From positions 29,806 to 93,805 of the forward strand of contig CAVTCR010000018.1 in assembly GCA_963733195.1 (NCBI GenBank): a stretch of DNA of 64,000 bases. Reading direction: 5' to 3'. Under the pieces are notes generated by a model. It saw nothing but the letters and a program-made list of their open reading frames with translations, searched no databases and was not told the DNA's origin. This document shows positions 1 to 10,889 of this stretch, one piece after another. The position numbers were made by a program, and so were the translations under genes. Source of the DNA: an uncultured delta proteobacterium. Lineage in GTDB: Bacteria > Desulfobacterota > Binatia > Bin18. Numbering within the stretch: position 1 is the first letter of the stretch; each line of letters opens with the position of its first letter.

Positions 1-2
1 CC

Positions 3-3000
3 CTGCTCACTGGCTTCTTCGCCTTTCATGCGCAGCACATCCGGTTGGATGGTTCAGTCGAACGGCTGCTGCCGGGAAATGACCCGGACAATCCATACTA
101 TCAATACTACGCGGAAGTCCGCGAGCTGTTCGGGAACGACGAAGTCGGCGTTATCGCCGTCGTCGCCGACAATATCTACGTCGCCGAGGTCTTGAACAAG
201 CTCCAACGTCTCACCAAAGAAATCGAAAAAGTCGATGGCGTCGCGAGTGTCCTGAGTCTCGCCAATGCGGTAGACCCGGTAGCCGATGTGACCGAGCCAC
301 CGTGGATCATGCCACAAATCCCAACCACTCCTGCGGCAGCCACGGCCCTACAAGAGAAGTTGGCTGACCGTCCGATTTACCTCAAAATCCTGGTGGCTCC
401 TGACGGACGGGCGGCGGCCATCAATATCTTTTTTGCTGAGATGAGCAACGACGAGTTCATGCACCGCGGCATTGATGACACGATCCAGAAAATTGTCGAG
501 CGGGAAAATACTACCGCCGTTCAAGAGCAACGGCCGGAACGATGGTACTACACCGGCTTGCCCCACTTTAAGGTCTACTCGACCAAGGTTATGCAACGTG
601 ACTTATCACGGTTGGTGCCGCTGATGCTGCTGTTTATCGTGCTGGTGTTGTTCTTTTGTTTCCGCTCGCTCCGCGGGGTTTTGCTTCCGACCCTGACAGT
701 GATTGTCAGTCTGATCTGGACCCTGGGCATTATGGTGCTCAGTGGCGGAGCTCTCAGCCTAGGCAGTATGGCCCTGCCACCGCTGGTGTTGGTAGTCGGT
801 GTCGCCTATTCGCTCCACGTAGTCGCCGAATATTACGAGCTCGCGCGCCCTAACCGTTCGCCCAAGGAAGTAGTGCTGGAGACTGTACGGAGGATCAACA
901 CGCCAGCCCTGATGGCCGCCCTCACAGCCGTGCTAGGGTTTTTCGTGCAAGCGCTGAATCCGATTGTCAGTATTCGCGAAATGGGCATCTACTCATCGCT
1001 CGGTATCACTTTGGCATTCGTATTCTCGCTGACTTTAGTGCCGGCGCTCCTCGCGATGCTGCGCCTGCCAAACCGACGCGTAGACACCTTCGCCCCGGGG
1101 CTCAGCGCTAGGCTGCGACGGTTAACGAGCACGGTCATGCAGCGCCGGAGCCTCATCATCACCGCGTGTGCTATTGTGGCACTCCTCGCGTTCAGCCAGA
1201 TTCCCTCGATCCGAGTCGATTCCGATTTTCAATCATTCTTCCGTCCGTCAGACTCCATTCGTCAGGCCACGGACGTGGTCAGTCATACCCTTGCGGGCAG
1301 CATGGCGTTTAATGTAGTAATCGACGGAACAACCCGCGACATAATGAAGCAATGGGAGACCCTACGACGCATACGTACCCTGCAAGAGGCAATCGACGCG
1401 TTGCCGGGAGTCGACAAGACGGTGTCGTTCGTCGATTACTGCTTACTCATCGACCGTGGCGTTCAAGAAGGGGGCGGTGGCCTCGAAGTCTCCCCCGAAG
1501 GAGAGTTGGTCGAGCCTACAGTTCAAGCATCTGGAAAGAAGACAACCTTTCTCGAAAATCCCGAGCAACTAAAAGCGGTTATGCAATTGTTTGCAGGGCG
1601 ACCGAAAAGCCTCGCCTTGGTGGTGAACCCCGAGTTCTCGCGCACCAACATCCTCGTACGCACTTCGCTGTCGGGCTCGAATGACATTGCTGCGACGGTG
1701 GACAAAATCAACACCCTGGCCGCCGAGATTCTTCCCCCCGAACTCAAAGCGCACCCGACCGGGAGCATTATTCTGCTGACAAAAACCATTGGGGACATTG
1801 TCAGCATTCAGGCGCAAAGCTTGACGCTCACCGCGGTAGTCATCTTCGTCCTGATGGCGGCCATGTTTCTTTCTGTTCGCGTAGGGGCCATCGCTATGAT
1901 CCCCTACCTCTTCACACTCCTGGCTTTCTTCGGCCTCATAGGAGCTTCAGGAGTCGTTTTCAATCTTGGCACTAACACCATCGCATTGGTCATCCTGGGG
2001 ATCACCGTAGATAGTACTATCCACCTCATGACGCGGCTGAGCTTTGAACTGCGAACCGGCGCCGATCAGGAACCAGCCCTGCTACAGACACTTGCTACGG
2101 TGGGCAAATCCAACCTCTACGTTTCCTCAAGCTTCTTCCTGGGCTTTCTTGTCTACGGCTTTTCCACTTTCGTTCCTATGCAACAGTTTGGTCTTCTCTC
2201 TGCGACTGCCATGATTGTAACGCTGGCAGCGAATGTCGTGTTGTTGCCGGCGCTGCTCGCCTCCCGTCGCATCCTCACTGTGTGGGACCTCTTGTATACG
2301 GTGACGCAGCTCACGCAGAAACTCGAACAGCGCGTAGCGGAACGCACCCAAGAGCTGCAAAAGGTGAATCGGCAACTGGAGGTGGCCTCCCGCCATAAAT
2401 CGGAGTTCTTGGCCCGCATGTCCCACGAACTGCGCACGCCCATGAACGCCATCATCGGCTTCACCCGCCTGGTCATGCGACGCTCTCAGAACATTCTGCC
2501 TAAGCATGAGCACGAGAACCTGGGGAAGGTCTTGATCAGTGCCGAGCACCTCCTGACGTTGATCAACGATATTCTCGACCTCTCCAAAGTCGAGGCGGGG
2601 CGGATGGAGGTCCATGCGGTTCGCTTCGAGTTGGAGCCGTTGATCAATCTGTGTCTCCACACGGTCGAGCCACTCATCAAGAACGAACGTCTCCGACTGG
2701 TGAAAAAGCTGGAGGGCGGCATGCCCGAGCTTTTTACAGATCAGGACAAGCTGAAGCAGATCCTCATGAACCTCTTGAGCAATGCCCTCAAGTTCACCGA
2801 AGCGGGGACGATTACGGTCACCGCCCAGCGTCAAGATAGACACGTCGTAATTTCCGTCGCGGACACCGGCATTGGCATCCCCGCGGATCAGTTAGCGCTG
2901 GTGTTTGAAGAATTTCACCAGGTAGACAACAGCGCCACTCGACAGTATAGCGGCACGGGCCTGGGGCTCTCGATCAGCCGCCACTTCGCGCAACTGTTGG

Positions 3001-3191
3001 GCGGAGACATCATGATACAAAGCACGATCGGGGTGGGCTCAACCTTCACCGTTAGTGTTCCGCTGCACTACGAAGCTGCTCAACTGGCTGCGCACGTTGC
3101 AGCGGTCTCCGTCCGTGACGTCGGGACTCCTGTGTTTGAAACCGGTTCGGTGGCGCTAGCCATAGACGATCCTACAAAGGTAAAGTCATGA
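3..3191 (+). CDS. MMPL/RND-family membrane protein fused to a HisKA-HATPase_c histidine kinase (5' end runs off the window)
   Basis: The frame is open from position 3 (LLTGFFAFHAQHIRLDGSVE). It has two MMPL repeats (large soluble loop plus TM helices, GxP motif 'YTGLPHF', 'LTLVPALL', 'VLLPALL'), then a coiled coil, H-box SHELRTPMNAIIGF, N-box NLLSNALKFT, G1 DTGIGI and G2 GTGLGLSI. Confidence 0.9.
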   Translation: MLTGFFAFHAQHIRLDGSVERLLPGNDPDNPYYQYYAEVRELFGNDEVGVIAVVADNIYVAEVLNKLQRLTKEIEKVDGVASVLSLANAVDPVADVTEPPWIMPQIPTTPAAATALQEKLADRPIYLKILVAPDGRAAAINIFFAEMSNDEFMHRGIDDTIQKIVERENTTAVQEQRPERWYYTGLPHFKVYSTKVMQRDLSRLVPLMLLFIVLVLFFCFRSLRGVLLPTLTVIVSLIWTLGIMVLSGGALSLGSMALPPLVLVVGVAYSLHVVAEYYELARPNRSPKEVVLETVRRINTPALMAALTAVLGFFVQALNPIVSIREMGIYSSLGITLAFVFSLTLVPALLAMLRLPNRRVDTFAPGLSARLRRLTSTVMQRRSLIITACAIVALLAFSQIPSIRVDSDFQSFFRPSDSIRQATDVVSHTLAGSMAFNVVIDGTTRDIMKQWETLRRIRTLQEAIDALPGVDKTVSFVDYCLLIDRGVQEGGGGLEVSPEGELVEPTVQASGKKTTFLENPEQLKAVMQLFAGRPKSLALVVNPEFSRTNILVRTSLSGSNDIAATVDKINTLAAEILPPELKAHPTGSIILLTKTIGDIVSIQAQSLTLTAVVIFVLMAAMFLSVRVGAIAMIPYLFTLLAFFGLIGASGVVFNLGTNTIALVILGITVDSTIHLMTRLSFELRTGADQEPALLQTLATVGKSNLYVSSSFFLGFLVYGFSTFVPMQQFGLLSATAMIVTLAANVVLLPALLASRRILTVWDLLYTVTQLTQKLEQRVAERTQELQKVNRQLEVASRHKSEFLARMSHELRTPMNAIIGFTRLVMRRSQNILPKHEHENLGKVLISAEHLLTLINDILDLSKVEAGRMEVHAVRFELEPLINLCLHTVEPLIKNERLRLVKKLEGGMPELFTDQDKLKQILMNLLSNALKFTEAGTITVTAQRQDRHVVISVADTGIGIPADQLALVFEEFHQVDNSATRQYSGTGLGLSISRHFAQLLGGDIMIQSTIGVGSTFTVSVPLHYEAAQLAAHVAAVSVRDVGTPVFETGSVALAIDDPTKVKS

Positions 3192-3553
3192 AGAAAATTC
3201 TGGTTGTAGAAGATGTGGAATTTAATCGCGATCTCCTCGTCCAACTCTTAGAGGACGACTACGAAGTCATTACCGCGCCTGATGGAGCGGCCGGGATCAT
3301 AGAAGCCGAGCGCGAACACCCCGACCTCATTCTCATGGATCTCTCGCTGCCGGTGGTCGATGGGTGGGAAGCGACTCGCCGAATCAAGGCCAACGCAGCA
3401 CTGCACAACATTCCACTCATTGCGCTGACGGCCCACGCGATGAGTGGCGATGTAGAAAAGGCCCGAGCGTGTGGCTGTGACGATTATCTGAGCAAGCCGC
3501 TCGATGAAGACCTATTGTTTGAGAAGATAAAGCAGTTTTTAGGAGAAAGGTAG
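3188..3553 (+). CDS. Single-domain response regulator (DivK/CheY-like)
   Basis: Motifs KKILVVED, DLILMDLSLP, IIALTA-like and YLSKP; ATGA overlap with the kinase stop. Confidence 0.93.
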   Translation: MKKILVVEDVEFNRDLLVQLLEDDYEVITAPDGAAGIIEAEREHPDLILMDLSLPVVDGWEATRRIKANAALHNIPLIALTAHAMSGDVEKARACGCDDYLSKPLDEDLLFEKIKQFLGER

Positions 3554-3575
3554 AGTATATTCAGGGACCGCCGGC

Positions 3576-4663
3576 ATGGAGGGATACGTAATGCCCGAAC
3601 GCCCCAAAATCCTCATCGTCGATGATGAGCCGTTCAACGTAGACTACCTGGAACAAGAACTAGCAGACCTTGGCTATGAGACAACCAGCGCCACCAACGG
3701 ACAGGAGGCCCTAGAGAAGGTAGCTGCCGAAGCCCCAGACCTGATTCTCCTCGATGTAATGATGCCAATCATGGACGGGTTCACAGTTTGTCGCACCCTG
3801 AAGGAGAGTGATGAGACACGGCTCATCCCCGTCGTGATCATGACTGCCCTGGATGGGATTGAGGATCGGATCAAAGGGATCGAGGCCGGGGCCGACGATT
3901 TTCTCACCAAACCCGTTAATGATCGAGAGTTACTCGCTCGCGTGCGGACCACCTTGAAACTGAAACACACGGTAGACCATAAGCTGAACGAACTCCGGCG
4001 GATCAAAGATCACTTTGCGAAGTTTGTGCCCGAGGCCGTGAAGCGGCTTAGCCACTGTCGACCCCGAGGCACCAGCGCTGGCGAGGAAGCATGAGCAAGA
4101 TGTGACGGTTCTCTTTCTTGGACATCAGTGGCTACACCCGTTTGAGCGAACGGCTACCGCCAGAGGTACTCAATACGCTGGTTGAACGTTATTTTTCTGC
4201 TTTTCTCGACCGTATCCATCAGGCCGACGGTGATATCAATGAAACTGCTGGTGATGGATTCATGGCCATTTTTCACGATGTTGATCGCTGCGTACACGCG
4301 GTCAAAGCTGTAGACACTGCGCTCGCCTTACTCGCGGCCACGGCAAGCGCTCAACCAAGAGAACCGTGAACATCCGCTCTCTATTCACATGGGTCTCAAC
4401 TCTGGGACCGCGTCTGGTTGGCGCGACTCGCTTTCGAAGGGATGCATGGCGCGCGCTGGACTTTCACAGCCAGTGGCCCAGTAACGAATCTTGCGGCGAG
4501 GTTGGCAGGCGTTGCCAAGGCCGAACACATCCTTATTGGCCCTGAGATAGTGCGCCGTCTTGGGGAAAGCTATCGCCTAGAAAAAGTAGGGCGCGAACGC
4601 TTGAAAAACATAACCGAAGCCATAGATATTTACCGCGTTATGGGTCGATCGGTTTTGCTGTGA
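3576..4663 (+). CDS. Receiver domain + class III nucleotide cyclase (split by several frameshifts)
   Basis: REC domain (ILIVDD, LLDVMMP, FLTKP), then cyclase motifs across ORFs 4118 and 4418: VLFLDISGYT, NETAGDGFMAIF, IHMGLNSG, GPVTNLAARL, LKN. Confidence 0.85.
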
Positions 4664-4715
4664 GGGTTGCTTTTCTCGACACAAGACCAAGGGAAAGAGT
4701 TCACTGCTCCTAATC

Positions 4716-5580
4716 TTACGGTCTCCTTTCTCCGGGTCCTGAAAACGGCGGCTTGACTTCTGTGACTGTAAGAATTTTCCAGGAACCGTTTTCTTTCTGA
4801 AGCGTGTACGAGGCACGTAGTTTCTCTAAAACAGATTGGTCTTTCTGGTAACGGGTTACATCAGCGACGATCAGCGCGGTTTCCTTCGTCAACGGCCAGA
4901 CCTGAAGTTGATCCGTCACCGATCGGCCCCAGCCGCGCTTGTGTAGGTCGGTCATGACGCGTTGATAGGCGCGCTCGTGATCAGCGACCGTCAGTGTCAC
5001 GATCATTCCCTGTTCGCCGAGCAAAAAGGCATGCGGGTGAGCCATACGAGCGAATAAATGCAGCGCGGTCCTCTTCATTGAAGCCATTGATGTAGTCGCG
5101 GTAAAACCTTTCGACTTCACTAATGATGGTCTTGGCATCAGCAACATTCTCCTGCGAACCCTCCGGTCCAACAAAAGGCGGCTTTACTTCAGTCAGCGTC
5201 AAAACTTTCCAGGCTCCACTATCTTTGCGCACAGTGTAACAATAGCGCCCGCTTTCCAGGATTGAATTGTCTTTTTTGTAGCGTGAGATGTCAGCCACAA
5301 GAAAGGCCATAATCTCGGCAATTGGCCACACCTGGAGTCGATTCACACCAGTATGATCCCAACCGCGTTCTTGAATCGAAGACATCACTTCTTGATAGAA
5401 TCGCTGTTGATCGGACTCTTTCGCGTTGATCGTCAGTCCATGTTCGCCACTGAGTATCCCGTTGGGGTAGCAGAACGAACGCAGGTACATGTCGGTATCC
5501 TCACGGTTGAAACCATCAATGAAGGTACGATAAAATGACTCCACTTCATTGGTGAGGGTAGTAGCATCCACCATAATCAT
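4716..5580 (-). CDS. Tandem two-domain NTF2/SnoaL-like protein (one frameshift near 5045)
   Basis: Two homologous repeats (EVESFYRTFIDGFN...GAWKVLTLTEVKPPF and EVERFYRDYINGFN...GSWKILTVTEVKPPF) are split over ORFs 4981-5580 and 4716-5174. Confidence 0.7.
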
Positions 5581-6252: not shown

Positions 6253-6689
6253 ATGCCTCTCTTCCAAGCGAGCATGGAATTCGTGGCGACGTTGGCATGC
6301 GCTATTTTCGCCGGGGCCGCACTCTACATTAACTTAGTCGAGCATCCGGCACGTATGGTCTGCGGCACGGAGATAGCAATACGCCAATGGGCACCAAGCT
6401 ACAAACGGGCTACATGGATGCAAGCACCGTTGGCCATTGTCGGATTTCTCGTGCCGTCCTTGCTTGGCTCGCAGGGTCAAGCCTATGGTGGCTATTCGGT
6501 GGAATGTTGCTCGGTCTGGTCGTTCTATTCACCTTCGTGATAATTCTGCCAACAAATAAACGGCTGCTGTCCCCGGGCCTCGATCAACGCGCAGAAGAAA
6601 CTCGACAGCTCTTGGAAAAATGGAGTCAATTACACGGTGTGAGAAGTGTGCTCAGCACCTTGGCCCTGCTTATTTTTCTGCTGCATTGA
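6253..6689 (+). CDS. DUF1772/anthrone-oxygenase-like membrane protein (frameshift near 6450)
   Basis: FAGAALYINLVEHPAR in the first frame, and ILPTNKRLL...W..LHGVR in the second frame. Confidence 0.75.
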
Positions 6690-9986: not shown

Positions 9987-10889
9987 TCAGAATTTCGCTT
10001 CGTCTGGCCGAGCAGCAGGATCGGCAAGGAACTCTCGCAATACGCGGACATACGTTTCACCACCAGCCTCATGCAGGTTGTTGTGCCCGGCACCCTCGAT
10101 CGCGTAGAATCGCTTCGGTTGCGGTGCCAAGGCATACAACGCTTGTCCTTGATGAAACGGAACCGTCCAGTCTTCTGTGCCGTGGATAATTAACAGCGGA
10201 GAGGGGAACCGTTCGACTAAGCGAGCAGAATTCAGATCCTGATCCACAAGAAAAGCAAGCGGTGGTAACCGGAGCTCCCCCATGGCGCGTAAAGAGAGAA
10301 AGGGCGCAAGGAGAACAGCATGGCTCGGTGGGGTTTCCAGTGCAAGCGTTACCACCACTGCCGCCCCTAGTGACTCGCCAAGATACACCACCGGTCGGCC
10401 TGCAATCCAGCCGCGCTGCTGCGCACAGGCAATCGCTGCACGACCGTCATCTAGAATACCGGGAATAGACGGTTTCCCTCGGCTCTTACCAAAACCTTGA
10501 TAGTCAAACACAAAGTGACTGCCCCCCACGCGATTGTGCAGGAGGCGAAGATGGGCAAGACGATGACCAATGTTTCCTGCGTTGCCATGGAACCAGATAA
10601 ACAACGGGTCCGCCGTACCTGTAGGCGTCTGACGGCTTGGCACATACCATCCATGGAGCAAGCGACCGTCGGCTCCGCCAAACCACACTTCCTCATACGG
10701 CAATCCGTATGCCGCAGGTGAAGTATCGACCTTTGTATTTGGATGAAAGACAAAGGTATTCTTGAGCCAGTCGATCGGAGAGGTCAGTAACGAACCGAGC
10801 AGCGCACTGACCGAGGCCCAACCGATTTTCCAATTTACCGTGTTTGCGTCACTCATCATTGGCTTGATAATGTCACGAGCTTCATTCAT
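9987..10889 (-). CDS. Alpha/beta hydrolase (Bem46/ABHD13/YfhR-like)
   Basis: Motifs FHGNAGNI, FDYQGFGKS, GESLG nucleophile, IHGTED and GAGHNN. Confidence 0.9.
   Translation of the reverse strand: MNEARDIIKPMMSDANTVNWKIGWASVSALLGSLLTSPIDWLKNTFVFHPNTKVDTSPAAYGLPYEEVWFGGADGRLLHGWYVPSRQTPTGTADPLFIWFHGNAGNIGHRLAHLRLLHNRVGGSHFVFDYQGFGKSRGKPSIPGILDDGRAAIACAQQRGWIAGRPVVYLGESLGAAVVVTLALETPPSHAVLLAPFLSLRAMGELRLPPLAFLVDQDLNSARLVERFPSPLLIIHGTEDWTVPFHQGQALYALAPQPKRFYAIEGAGHNNLHEAGGETYVRVLREFLADPAARPDEAKF

Follow-up and report, generated by a model that had tools for sequence, protein, structure and literature searches.

Little is understood of the ways in which bacteria monitor the condition of their envelope lipids and the burden placed on their efflux pumps, and pumps of the resistance-nodulation-division (RND) type are normally regulated only transcriptionally, by separate sensors. 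Could a pump-fold protein be wired directly to a kinase? The question is raised by the start of a 64,000-nt stretch of DNA from an uncultured soil bacterium of the class Binatia, here called the window (contig CAVTCR010000018.1; G000:C18:29806-93805, G000 being the source genome bin), in which a gene joining an MMPL/RND transporter body to a histidine kinase is followed by genes for a receiver (REC) and a receiver-class III cyclase. An earlier interpretation of the letters, hereafter the sequence-only reading, had proposed a new signalling system in which a lipid-sensing, Patched-like 'transceptor' kinase drives a phosphorelay and a cyclic-nucleotide signal. The analysis reported here favours a narrower version: we give a probability of about 0.5 to the view that the protein is a transporter-coupled 'transceptor' kinase driving the cyclase, within a conserved four-gene module. 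The organism is uncultured, and everything said below on the function of the module we infer from sequences and structural models.

The fusion gene (window 1..3191, + strand) is documented by its open frame, its Pfam domains, an AlphaFold2 (AF2) model and Foldseek comparisons. A single frame without stops runs through window 3..3191 (+); the open reading frame (ORF) starts 58 nt before the window, with its ATG at G000:C18:29748, and has 1082 codons in total, and residue numbers given here are those of the full 1082-aa protein (window-frame residue + 20). In this frame the MMPL family (PF03176) matches in two stretches, as internal repeats, at 125.8 bits (cut-off 20.5), the sterol-sensing domain (SSD) and Patched SSD models cover transmembrane helices (TM) 2-6 at 39.3 and 31.7 bits, and HisKA (PF00512; 63.2 bits, cut-off 26.9) and HATPase_c (PF02518; 105.1 bits, cut-off 26.4) follow. 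These five are the Pfam families found in the protein, HATPase_c_3 scoring below its cut-off, and they bear out the earlier claim that one frame joins an MMPL/RND body to a complete HisKA-HATPase kinase.

The part of the protein that links membrane to kinase can be divided as follows. TM9-TM12, with the conserved Asp690, Thr692 and His694 in TM10, occupy window 1874..2270 (+), as judged from a tree of residues 648-786, a motif table and the helix limits of the model. The juxtamembrane motif ILTVWDLLY and a kinase-specific helical linker (TVTQLTQKLEQRVAE...) then lead into the H-box (2271..2396, +; alignment and model). The HisKA (DHp) domain lies at 2397..2600 (+), with its phospho-accepting His in SHELRTP, and the HATPase_c catalytic domain at 2736..3065 (+), both read from the Pfam matches and the translation. 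The catalytic domain has all of LLSNALKF, DTGIGI, FEEFHQ and GTGLGLS, which we take to be the N, G1, F and G2 boxes, so that every motif expected of an active kinase (H, N, G1, F and G2) is readable in the translation. Pfam finds no Response_reg or Hpt match in the fusion protein and no Hpt among the four genes of the module; with a kinase lacking its own receiver, the term phosphorelay does not apply in its strict sense.

The stop codon of the kinase overlaps the start of the next gene (ATGA), as had been noted, and this gene, REC1 (window 3188..3553, +), encodes a single stand-alone receiver of 121 aa (Pfam, 90.3 bits). Its earlier label 'DivK-like' is descriptive only, the DVU0259/DivK NCBIfam model (NF045717) reaching 55.2 bits against a cut-off of 160; among NCBIfam models REC1 comes closest to hybrid-kinase receivers, in every case below cut-off. 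A second receiver, REC2, begins at 3576, 22 nt past REC1 (111 bits), and opens the REC2-class III cyclase gene (3576..4663, +; orthologue-aligned start ATG 3591), which is defined by ORF pieces and by alignment to the intact gene of another locus, L006. The receiver that the sequence-only reading had placed here therefore stands; the single open cyclase frame does not, and we return to this below. Upstream of the fusion lies the gene of receiver-X, a 371-aa protein with a receiver and an unnamed C-terminal domain (L001:26-1141 = C18:28331-29446).

The order receiver-X, MMPL-kinase, REC1, REC2-cyclase is a conserved one. G011, whose contig carries the related protein P0005, shares exactly these four consecutive genes with the window locus and nothing beyond, with identities of 82% for receiver-X, 61% overall for the fusion and 87% each for REC1 and REC2. 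L006 has the kinase fusion, REC1 and an intact 410-aa REC-cyclase, and a metagenome locus, L112, has receiver-X, the MMPL-kinase and REC1 before its contig ends; REC1 is 87% identical to its orthologues in all three. Conservation of the receiver and cyclase neighbours, which the sequence-only reading had left to be checked, is thus seen in the relatives that can be inspected (G011, L006 and L112). Homologues of receiver-X also occur on contigs equal in length to those of P0010 and P0013, no more than a hint of the same arrangement there. The receiver Asp, Thr and Lys residues are present. Between receiver-X and REC2 the receiver domain is 75% identical (96/128), between REC1 and REC2 only 36% (42/117), which suggests that one kinase serves two look-alike receivers and a different one.

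The three-gene part of this arrangement also occurs without any transporter. Cyclase pieces used as tblastn queries found matches in 8 of 84 loci, and the cassette inputs in the 11 loci inspected were hybrid kinases with sCache-HAMP-GAF, dCache-HAMP or PAS-GAF sensors; L007 carries a Ser/Thr-kinase fusion with receiver-X upstream and no cyclase nearby. The comparison indicates that the kinase/REC1/REC-cyclase cassette is not special to MMPL proteins and that only the input is unusual. The proposal of a wholly new signalling system consequently goes too far, since the same kinase core, receiver and receiver-cyclase follow ordinary Cache, HAMP, GAF and PAS sensors, and since transporter-kinase fusions are a known though rare kind. 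Kinase tails are 76-98% identical between lineages whose bodies are only 30-60% identical, and judged by these alignments the pattern is that of a diversifying sensor before a conserved transmitter. Purifying selection acts on all parts, with a ratio of nonsynonymous to synonymous substitution rates (dN/dS) of 0.17 for the kinase tail against L006.

How common is the fusion, and is its junction genuine? A search of a 5.8-billion-protein collection with the fusion protein gave 7,980 scored matches, of which the best 120 were listed, and five of these 120 (P0005, P0006, P0010, P0012 and P0013) combine MMPL, HisKA and HATPase_c, covering 97-100% of the query at 58-62% identity. The relatives carry the NCBI label 'MMPL family transporter' and come from metagenome-assembled genomes (MAGs) of 'Candidatus Binatia' or 'Deltaproteobacteria'. 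In an exhaustive HMMER search of 1.84 billion protein representatives with 220 residues spanning TM11-12, the linker and HisKA, the whole query was matched by two of the best 150, P0006 and P0121, the latter a 445-aa fragment 92% identical to it; all others matched the kinase part only. Among 401 genomes sampled from the class (G000 included, and with seven unpublished genomes counted solely among the negatives), full-length matches to a 270-aa junction query came from three genomes of a single family, G000, G011 and G024. G001 and G002, of the same genus as the source, gave no full junction match (G002 is ~100% complete, G001 ~84%). Among the loci retrieved with junction queries, an MMPL body stood ahead of the kinase in 1 of 80 genome-contig loci (L006) and in 1 of 80 metagenome loci (L112). 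The junction at 2270-2330 is also bridged by short contigs of two other soil samples (X6 record 27, 2001-2338; X1 record 6, 2215-2365).

The MMPL-kinase junction is thus neither chance nor chimera, because independent database proteins, genomes, L112 and soil contigs read through it; the fusion is real yet rare. Homologous fusions, whose absence together with a lack of kinase activity would have told against the sequence-only reading, are at hand in P0005, P0006, P0010, P0012, P0013, P0121, G011, G024, L006 and L112. The reads of the source itself were not found, since no sequencing run contained over 12% of the words sampled from window 1-4700; four read sets (X1, X2, X3 and X6) yielded short contigs of relatives only, 90-96% alike, and none of the pieces listed from them spans the whole stretch or bridges base 1873. 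Read depth in these four sets is low or nil in the bins at 1885-2198, which has no bearing on the recombinant junction described below.

The structure prediction that the sequence-only reading had called for gave an MmpL-type RND fold. The AF2 model, built from 47 sequences, has 12 TM helices with a predicted local distance difference test score (pLDDT) of 80-93 across residues 1-790, two alpha/beta periplasmic inserts (residues 31-205 and 423-607) and a low-confidence helix at 780-812, the linker. Foldseek against the PDB placed MmpL5, MmpL4 and MmpL3 first (E 1e-23 to 1e-21, probability 1.00, target-normalised TM-score 0.72-0.78), followed by NPC1L1, NCR1, HpnN and PTCH1, so that on this model the body has the MmpL/HpnN/NPC1/Patched fold. 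It is no closer to Patched or NPC1 than to MmpL pumps, and the supposed Patched-like specificity finds no support in it. The idea of a hopanoid, sterol or other lipid ligand likewise found no support: the fusion does not reach the HpnN model (TIGR03480 / NF052374; 133.7 bits, cut-off 751.85), and HAE3 (TIGR00921), its best transporter model, is also below cut-off (203.4 against 351.9 bits).

MmpL3-type pumps relay protons through Asp/Tyr pairs in TM4 and TM10. Of these pairs Tyr289 (TM4) and Asp690 (TM10) alone remain in the fusion, the TM10 alignment to MmpL4 being unreliable; Tyr289 is kept in all six kinase-type proteins, and Asp690, Thr692 and His694 in five of the six. As a separate observation, window 144-152 encodes a three-residue insertion, PYY (in DPDNPYYQYY), which is missing from all 14 aligned relatives shown and looks like a 9-nt tandem duplication.

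The nearest relatives of the fusion body have another tail. A cyclic-nucleotide (cNMP)-binding domain (PF00027) is present on 113 of the 120 relatives listed as best of the 7,980 matches, proteins of ~920 aa that are 53-84% identical to the window protein over the MMPL body. This uncharacterised MMPL-cNMP-binding family, whose members are annotated simply as 'MMPL family transporter', is a sister family, with the same body and an identical fusion point: after TM12 both types share I(I/L)T(L/V)WDLL(Y/H) and then diverge, into a cNMP-binding domain in one and into a coiled coil and kinase in the other. The ILTVWDLLY motif is accordingly common to both lineages, and by the alignment the linker after it is kinase-specific. 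The cNMP-type body evolves more slowly than the kinase-lineage body. The source genome has three MMPL paralogues: P0003 (G000:C70:76639-79431) with a cNMP-binding tail, one with such a tail split over three frames (C10:63006-65827) and one without a C-terminal domain (C58:27058-29514). The gene following the C10 copy, C10:61632-62927, encodes 431 aa with a signal-peptide-like N-terminus, which we take to be a candidate partner resembling outer-membrane lipoprotein-sorting (DUF1329-like) proteins. MMPL-type matches occur in 52 of 54 family genomes, and the co-occurrence of the fusion with cNMP paralogues is uninformative.

The window gene itself combines both lineages. Its DNA resembles the genome's own C70 paralogue at 84% from window 15 to 1873, where the similarity ends abruptly. 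In windows of 50 residues, residues 51-650 are 82-100% identical to the cNMP-type protein P0001 and 28-68% to kinase types; the profile switches at residues ~650-750, and residues 751-1050 are 76-96% identical to kinase types. Trees tell the same: for residues 648-786 all six kinase-type proteins, the window protein included, form one clade (support 0.995), while for residues 25-640 the other five form a clade on long branches (support 0.93) and the window protein stands beside P0001 in the cNMP clade. The first 27 residues are again kinase-type (MERVYHFIVHRP...) and not cNMP-type (MQRIFRLIVD...), and the flanks (the upstream gene, a 107-nt intergenic block and ~1854-4647) have their counterparts in G011 and L112, loci of the kinase type, at 74-81% DNA identity. 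Contigs from two other samples (records 26 and 10) fit up to 1873 and then diverge.

Because both flanks match kinase-type loci and the tract between them matches the cNMP lineage, the sequence comparisons identify the window gene as a mosaic, with an internal, in-frame conversion tract of ~1.86 kb from the paralogous MMPL-cNMP lineage. The tract (window 15..1873, +; DNA similarity, identity profile, trees) covers ~residues 28-644, that is TM1-TM8 and both periplasmic domains, and by the helix limits of the model it spared TM9-TM12, the linker and the kinase. It differs from C70 at a synonymous divergence (dS) of 0.66, which by this measure means that C70 itself was not the donor, and its dN/dS of 0.10 indicates that it has been kept under purifying selection. 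Repeated body swaps in every kinase lineage were considered and rejected, the five other kinase-type bodies forming one clade; among the kinase-type proteins compared only the window protein appears mosaic. A separate observation concerns the kinase tail (window 2271-3188), whose proportion of synonymous differences (pS) from L006 and G011 is 0.42-0.45 as against 0.65-0.77 for the flanking REC1, REC2 and cyclase, a hint of either a later, second exchange or constraint at the nucleotide level.

The cyclase gene is read as three ORF pieces (3576..4094, 4118..4369 and 4418..4663), of which only the middle one scores as Guanylate_cyc (PF00211; 27.5 bits, cut-off 21.9). Compared with the intact L006 gene it has five extra single bases, at ~4045, 4117/4118, 4348, 4413 and 4432, and no other coding indel. 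Related contigs assembled from further soil and rhizosphere samples, 90-96% alike, lack four of the five. The pieces have a proportion of nonsynonymous differences (pN) of 0.08-0.11 at a saturated pS of ~0.75; the intact REC1 and REC2 have a pN of 0.076-0.097, a likeness that gives no sign of relaxed selection on the cyclase. Elsewhere in the same assembly rpoB is split into three frame pieces and rpoC into at least three, with one in-frame TGA (G000:C71:133111-141235), and four histidine-kinase paralogues and the C10 MMPL paralogue are also frame-split. Since the genes of RNA polymerase are broken in the same way, since relatives lack four of the five bases and since selection is not relaxed, the frame breaks of the cyclase are most likely consensus errors of a noisy assembly, or else changes of very recent date. 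Programmed frameshifting was also considered and rejected, the sites being five and separate. Similar breaks may be present nearby: at window 4716-5580 (-) two ORFs for a tandem pair of similar ~150-aa domains overlap in different frames, as do two ORFs for a small membrane protein at 6253-6689 (+), and in both places the assembly seems to have broken the frame by a single base again. In G011 the orthologous REC-cyclase (L096, G011:C13, reverse strand, ~10,100-10,700 of the reversed locus) has one frame break, between VERYF and SAFL in a T run, and this may be a consensus error too, G011 being another MAG.

Class III cyclases use two metal-binding Asp, an Asn and an Arg for catalysis. The corresponding motifs here are FLDISGYT (from L006, the window copy being split at ~4117/4118) and, in the window, INETAGDGFMAIF / GDGFMAIF and VTNLAAR. 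The best PDB sequence match of the domain is 2W01 (Cya2 of Synechocystis; E 1.2e-17), and the Glu of INETAGDG falls opposite Glu488 of Cya2 and opposite the Lys of 6FHT, the E488K chain; INETAGDG is found in the window, in eight of the nine cassette cyclases examined and in one paralogue of the same genome. As described in PMC5995499, Cya2 is a guanylate cyclase whose substrate preference is switched by one exchange in the active site, and its E488K variant is active as an adenylate cyclase. Because it shares this purine-specifying Glu, the window cyclase probably prefers GTP and would make cGMP. The two differ in that Cya2 is regulated by a CHASE2 domain, whereas the window cyclase is linked to a receiver.

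The C-terminal ~220 aa of receiver-X (residues 150-371) form a widespread domain, matched at E ≤ 0.001 by 1,696 proteins and elsewhere fused to alpha/beta hydrolases, class III cyclase, LuxR, TPR and AAA modules; its invariant residues include F26, G30, W33, R43, C208, Y210 and W220. It has no Pfam family and only unnamed clusters in the ESM Atlas (at 0.93), and Foldseek against the PDB had no match at E ≤ 0.001. Winged-helix domains of OmpR/PhoB, EmbR and AfsR make up most of the weak matches (E 0.2-2), over stretches of 55-80 residues, and we treat this resemblance of the predicted structure as a lead only.

The start of the fusion gene carries an insertion. A 137-nt element with 18-nt terminal inverted repeats lies within codons 1-5 (L086:1294-1456 = window -207 to -45), flanked by the 13-nt direct repeat TGGAACGCGTCTA. 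In its upstream copy this repeat forms a dead start (GTG GAA CGC GTC TAG), which follows the native Shine-Dalgarno sequence that is conserved in G011 and L112; the downstream copy holds the live ATG. Further copies lie at G000:C22:54051-54180 (73% identity) and on G296:C453 (70%); the element is matched in 3 of 55 family genomes, in one over just 23 bases, and by its sequence it looks like a miniature inverted-repeat transposable element. An Rfam search of the upstream conserved intergenic block gave only Hrs13, at 14.8 bits (gathering score 52, E 0.68), which was rejected. A promoter and terminator scan of L086 1-6500 found four promoter-like sites (3.3 ± 1.7 in shuffled sequences) and nine terminator-like sites (6.1 ± 3.1), none of either at the expected places.

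With this evidence at hand, is the locus what it seems to be? The source genome is a metagenome bin of 87 contigs, 93% complete with 4.5% contamination, the front of the gene is 84% DNA-identical to a paralogue of the same bin exactly up to base 1873, and the source reads are missing from the sequencing runs, all of which could mean that an assembler joined an MMPL front and a kinase back from different genes. We regard this as highly improbable: independent sequences contain the domain junction at ~2270-2330 as well, the foreign tract begins and ends in frame at homologous positions, and both its 5' flank (upstream gene, intergenic block and first 27 codons) and its 3' flank (TM9 to cyclase) match kinase-type loci, so that an assembler would have had to make two exact joins, 1.86 kb from each other, between sequences only ~65% identical. 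A real but dying gene, in which the disrupted start, a truly frameshifted cyclase and the conversion are all neutral noise, would suit the five insertions in 390 nt of cyclase, the element that has entered codons 1-5 and left a dead start copy upstream, and the two genomes of the same genus (G001 and G002) that lack a full junction match. Against decay speak the intact 3.25-kb fusion ORF and REC1 and the cyclase pieces without excess amino-acid change; moreover the breaks should be mostly artefacts, given that this assembly also breaks the frames of rpoB and rpoC, which are essential genes, and relatives at 90-96% identity in other samples do not have four of the five extra bases. Decay is therefore a rather improbable explanation.

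If the gene is sound, its parts could still work differently from what we propose. The wiring might run in reverse, with the kinase module a regulatory appendage that gates a working exporter through nucleotide, phosphorylation or binding of phospho-REC1, much as the cNMP-binding domain presumably does in the sister family, and with the receivers acting also as inputs. That 113 of the 120 closest relatives listed carry a cNMP-binding domain, a ligand-binding input, at the same fusion point would agree with this, as would an H-box, HELRT, that is compatible with phosphatase activity, and the resemblance of REC1 to hybrid-kinase receivers (matches below cut-off). We hold it to be unlikely, because in other bacteria the same kinase core with REC and REC-cyclase follows classical sensor domains, extracellular or cytoplasmic, where the kinase is plainly a transmitter, and because the kinase tail, at 76-98% identity against 30-60% for the bodies, is the most conserved part, as fits a conserved transmitter. 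Conversely the RND body may no longer transport at all and be purely a receptor, a Patched-like sensor of membrane lipid, which was the strongest form of the sequence-only reading. The long branches of kinase-lineage bodies, with a dN/dS two- to three-fold above that of the cNMP-lineage body, the loss of the TM10 Asp690 in P0012 and the SSD and Patched matches over TM2-6 point that way; retention of Asp690, Thr692 and His694 in five of six kinase-type proteins and of Tyr289 in six of six, a window body taken from a transporter-type lineage (dN/dS 0.10), and a fold no more similar to Patched/NPC1 than to MmpL pumps point the other way, and we leave a pure receptor only a small probability.

A transporter-coupled kinase feeding a cyclic-nucleotide output remains the best reading, as the architecture is genuine, the neighbours are conserved and the fold is that of MmpL. 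In this reading the RND body would bind or pump a hydrophobic envelope compound, and its conformational cycle would reach the dimeric kinase core by way of TM9-12, ILTVWDLLY and a helical linker of ~35 residues. The kinase would phosphorylate REC2 and so switch on the cyclase, probably yielding cGMP, and would also phosphorylate receiver-X, possibly a DNA-binding regulator acting on transcription; the dissimilar REC1 would serve as a competing sink or modulator. We infer in which direction the signal runs, what class of substrate is involved, that cGMP is made and what each receiver does.

Several observations weigh against this reading. The path of coupling is invisible in the model, because kinase tail and linker have low confidence (pLDDT <50 at 804-826, 877-911 and 924-1082). 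TM4 reads AYSLH, the MmpL TM4 Asp being Ala in the fusion family, and one kinase-type lineage, P0012, has Ala at 690; with both changes active transport by the body is uncertain on sequence grounds. The dN/dS of the body is 0.26-0.34 as against 0.15 for the kinase tail (G011 versus G024), which would also fit a sensor that does not pump. The recombinant junction at 1873 is seen solely in the source assembly, and the 137-nt inverted-repeat element parts the gene from its native ribosome-binding site. Five insertions in 390 nt of cyclase are denser than the ~5 frame breaks in 8 kb of rpoBC, which leaves real inactivation of the cyclase some probability. The second purine-pocket position is Thr in the window and Gly in Cya2, so that a preference for GTP is not assured.

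Transporters fused to kinases have precedents. According to PMC13022988, CbrA of Pseudomonas is an SLC5 transporter-STAC-PAS-kinase 'transceptor', of a kind called rare, in which transport-derived motions are proposed to control the kinase. Like the MMPL-kinase, CbrA as described there unites transporter and histidine kinase in one polypeptide; it differs in having an SLC5 fold with 13 TM helices (RND/MMPL with 12 here), STAC and PAS domains before the kinase (only a short helical linker from TM12 to H-box here) and a transcription factor as its partner, where the MMPL-kinase module has a cyclase. A second case (PMC5764959) is the ammonium sensor histidine kinase of 'Candidatus Kuenenia stuttgartiensis', an Amt domain fused to a kinase and so again a transporter fold as the input of a fused kinase. 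Unlike the MMPL-kinase module it has an Amt/Rh channel fold, a small hydrophilic ligand and no cyclase output. This Amt-kinase is trimeric. By the comparison of domains the MMPL-kinase resembles these 'transceptors' in principle and is a member of neither family, as fold, linker and output differ. The proteins that it resembles most in structure, mycobacterial MmpL3, MmpL4 and MmpL5 and Burkholderia HpnN (E 1e-23 to 1e-19; target-normalised TM-score 0.65-0.78), are RND exporters of lipids and siderophores whose structures have been solved; they share 13-16% sequence identity with its body, have no kinase attached and, in MmpL, carry an Asp in TM4 where the fusion has Ala. Eukaryotic Patched and NPC1 have the same RND fold (Foldseek E 1e-21 to 1e-18, with the SSD models matching); they signal by changing how lipids are distributed, with no fused kinase involved. 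In the full-text literature, with most subscription journals and supplements outside reach, we found no account of a histidine kinase fused to an MMPL or RND protein, and no description of cNMP-domain RND proteins or of the gating of RND transport by cAMP or cGMP.

What the locus means for the family can be stated at several levels. With a pump-fold protein wired to a kinase, the RND fold would join the very few transporter folds used by 'transceptor' kinases. The mosaic gene amounts to a natural domain swap, in which pump-type TM1-8 and periplasmic domains appear combinable with sensor-type TM9-12 and kinase, and it points to TM9-12 with the juxtamembrane motif as the coupling unit. The search also exposed a large unstudied RND family with a cyclic-nucleotide-binding tail, which would imply post-translational gating of RND transport by cAMP or cGMP. 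The two families might even form a closed circuit, in which the MMPL-kinase samples the envelope compound of the paralogous exporters, the resulting cGMP switches these exporters on through their cNMP domains, and gene conversion keeps the specificities matched. We consider such a circuit a long shot; if it were true, it would be the first case of a receptor kinase with an RND fold and of RND pumps gated by a cyclic nucleotide, and would give bacterial cGMP a new role.

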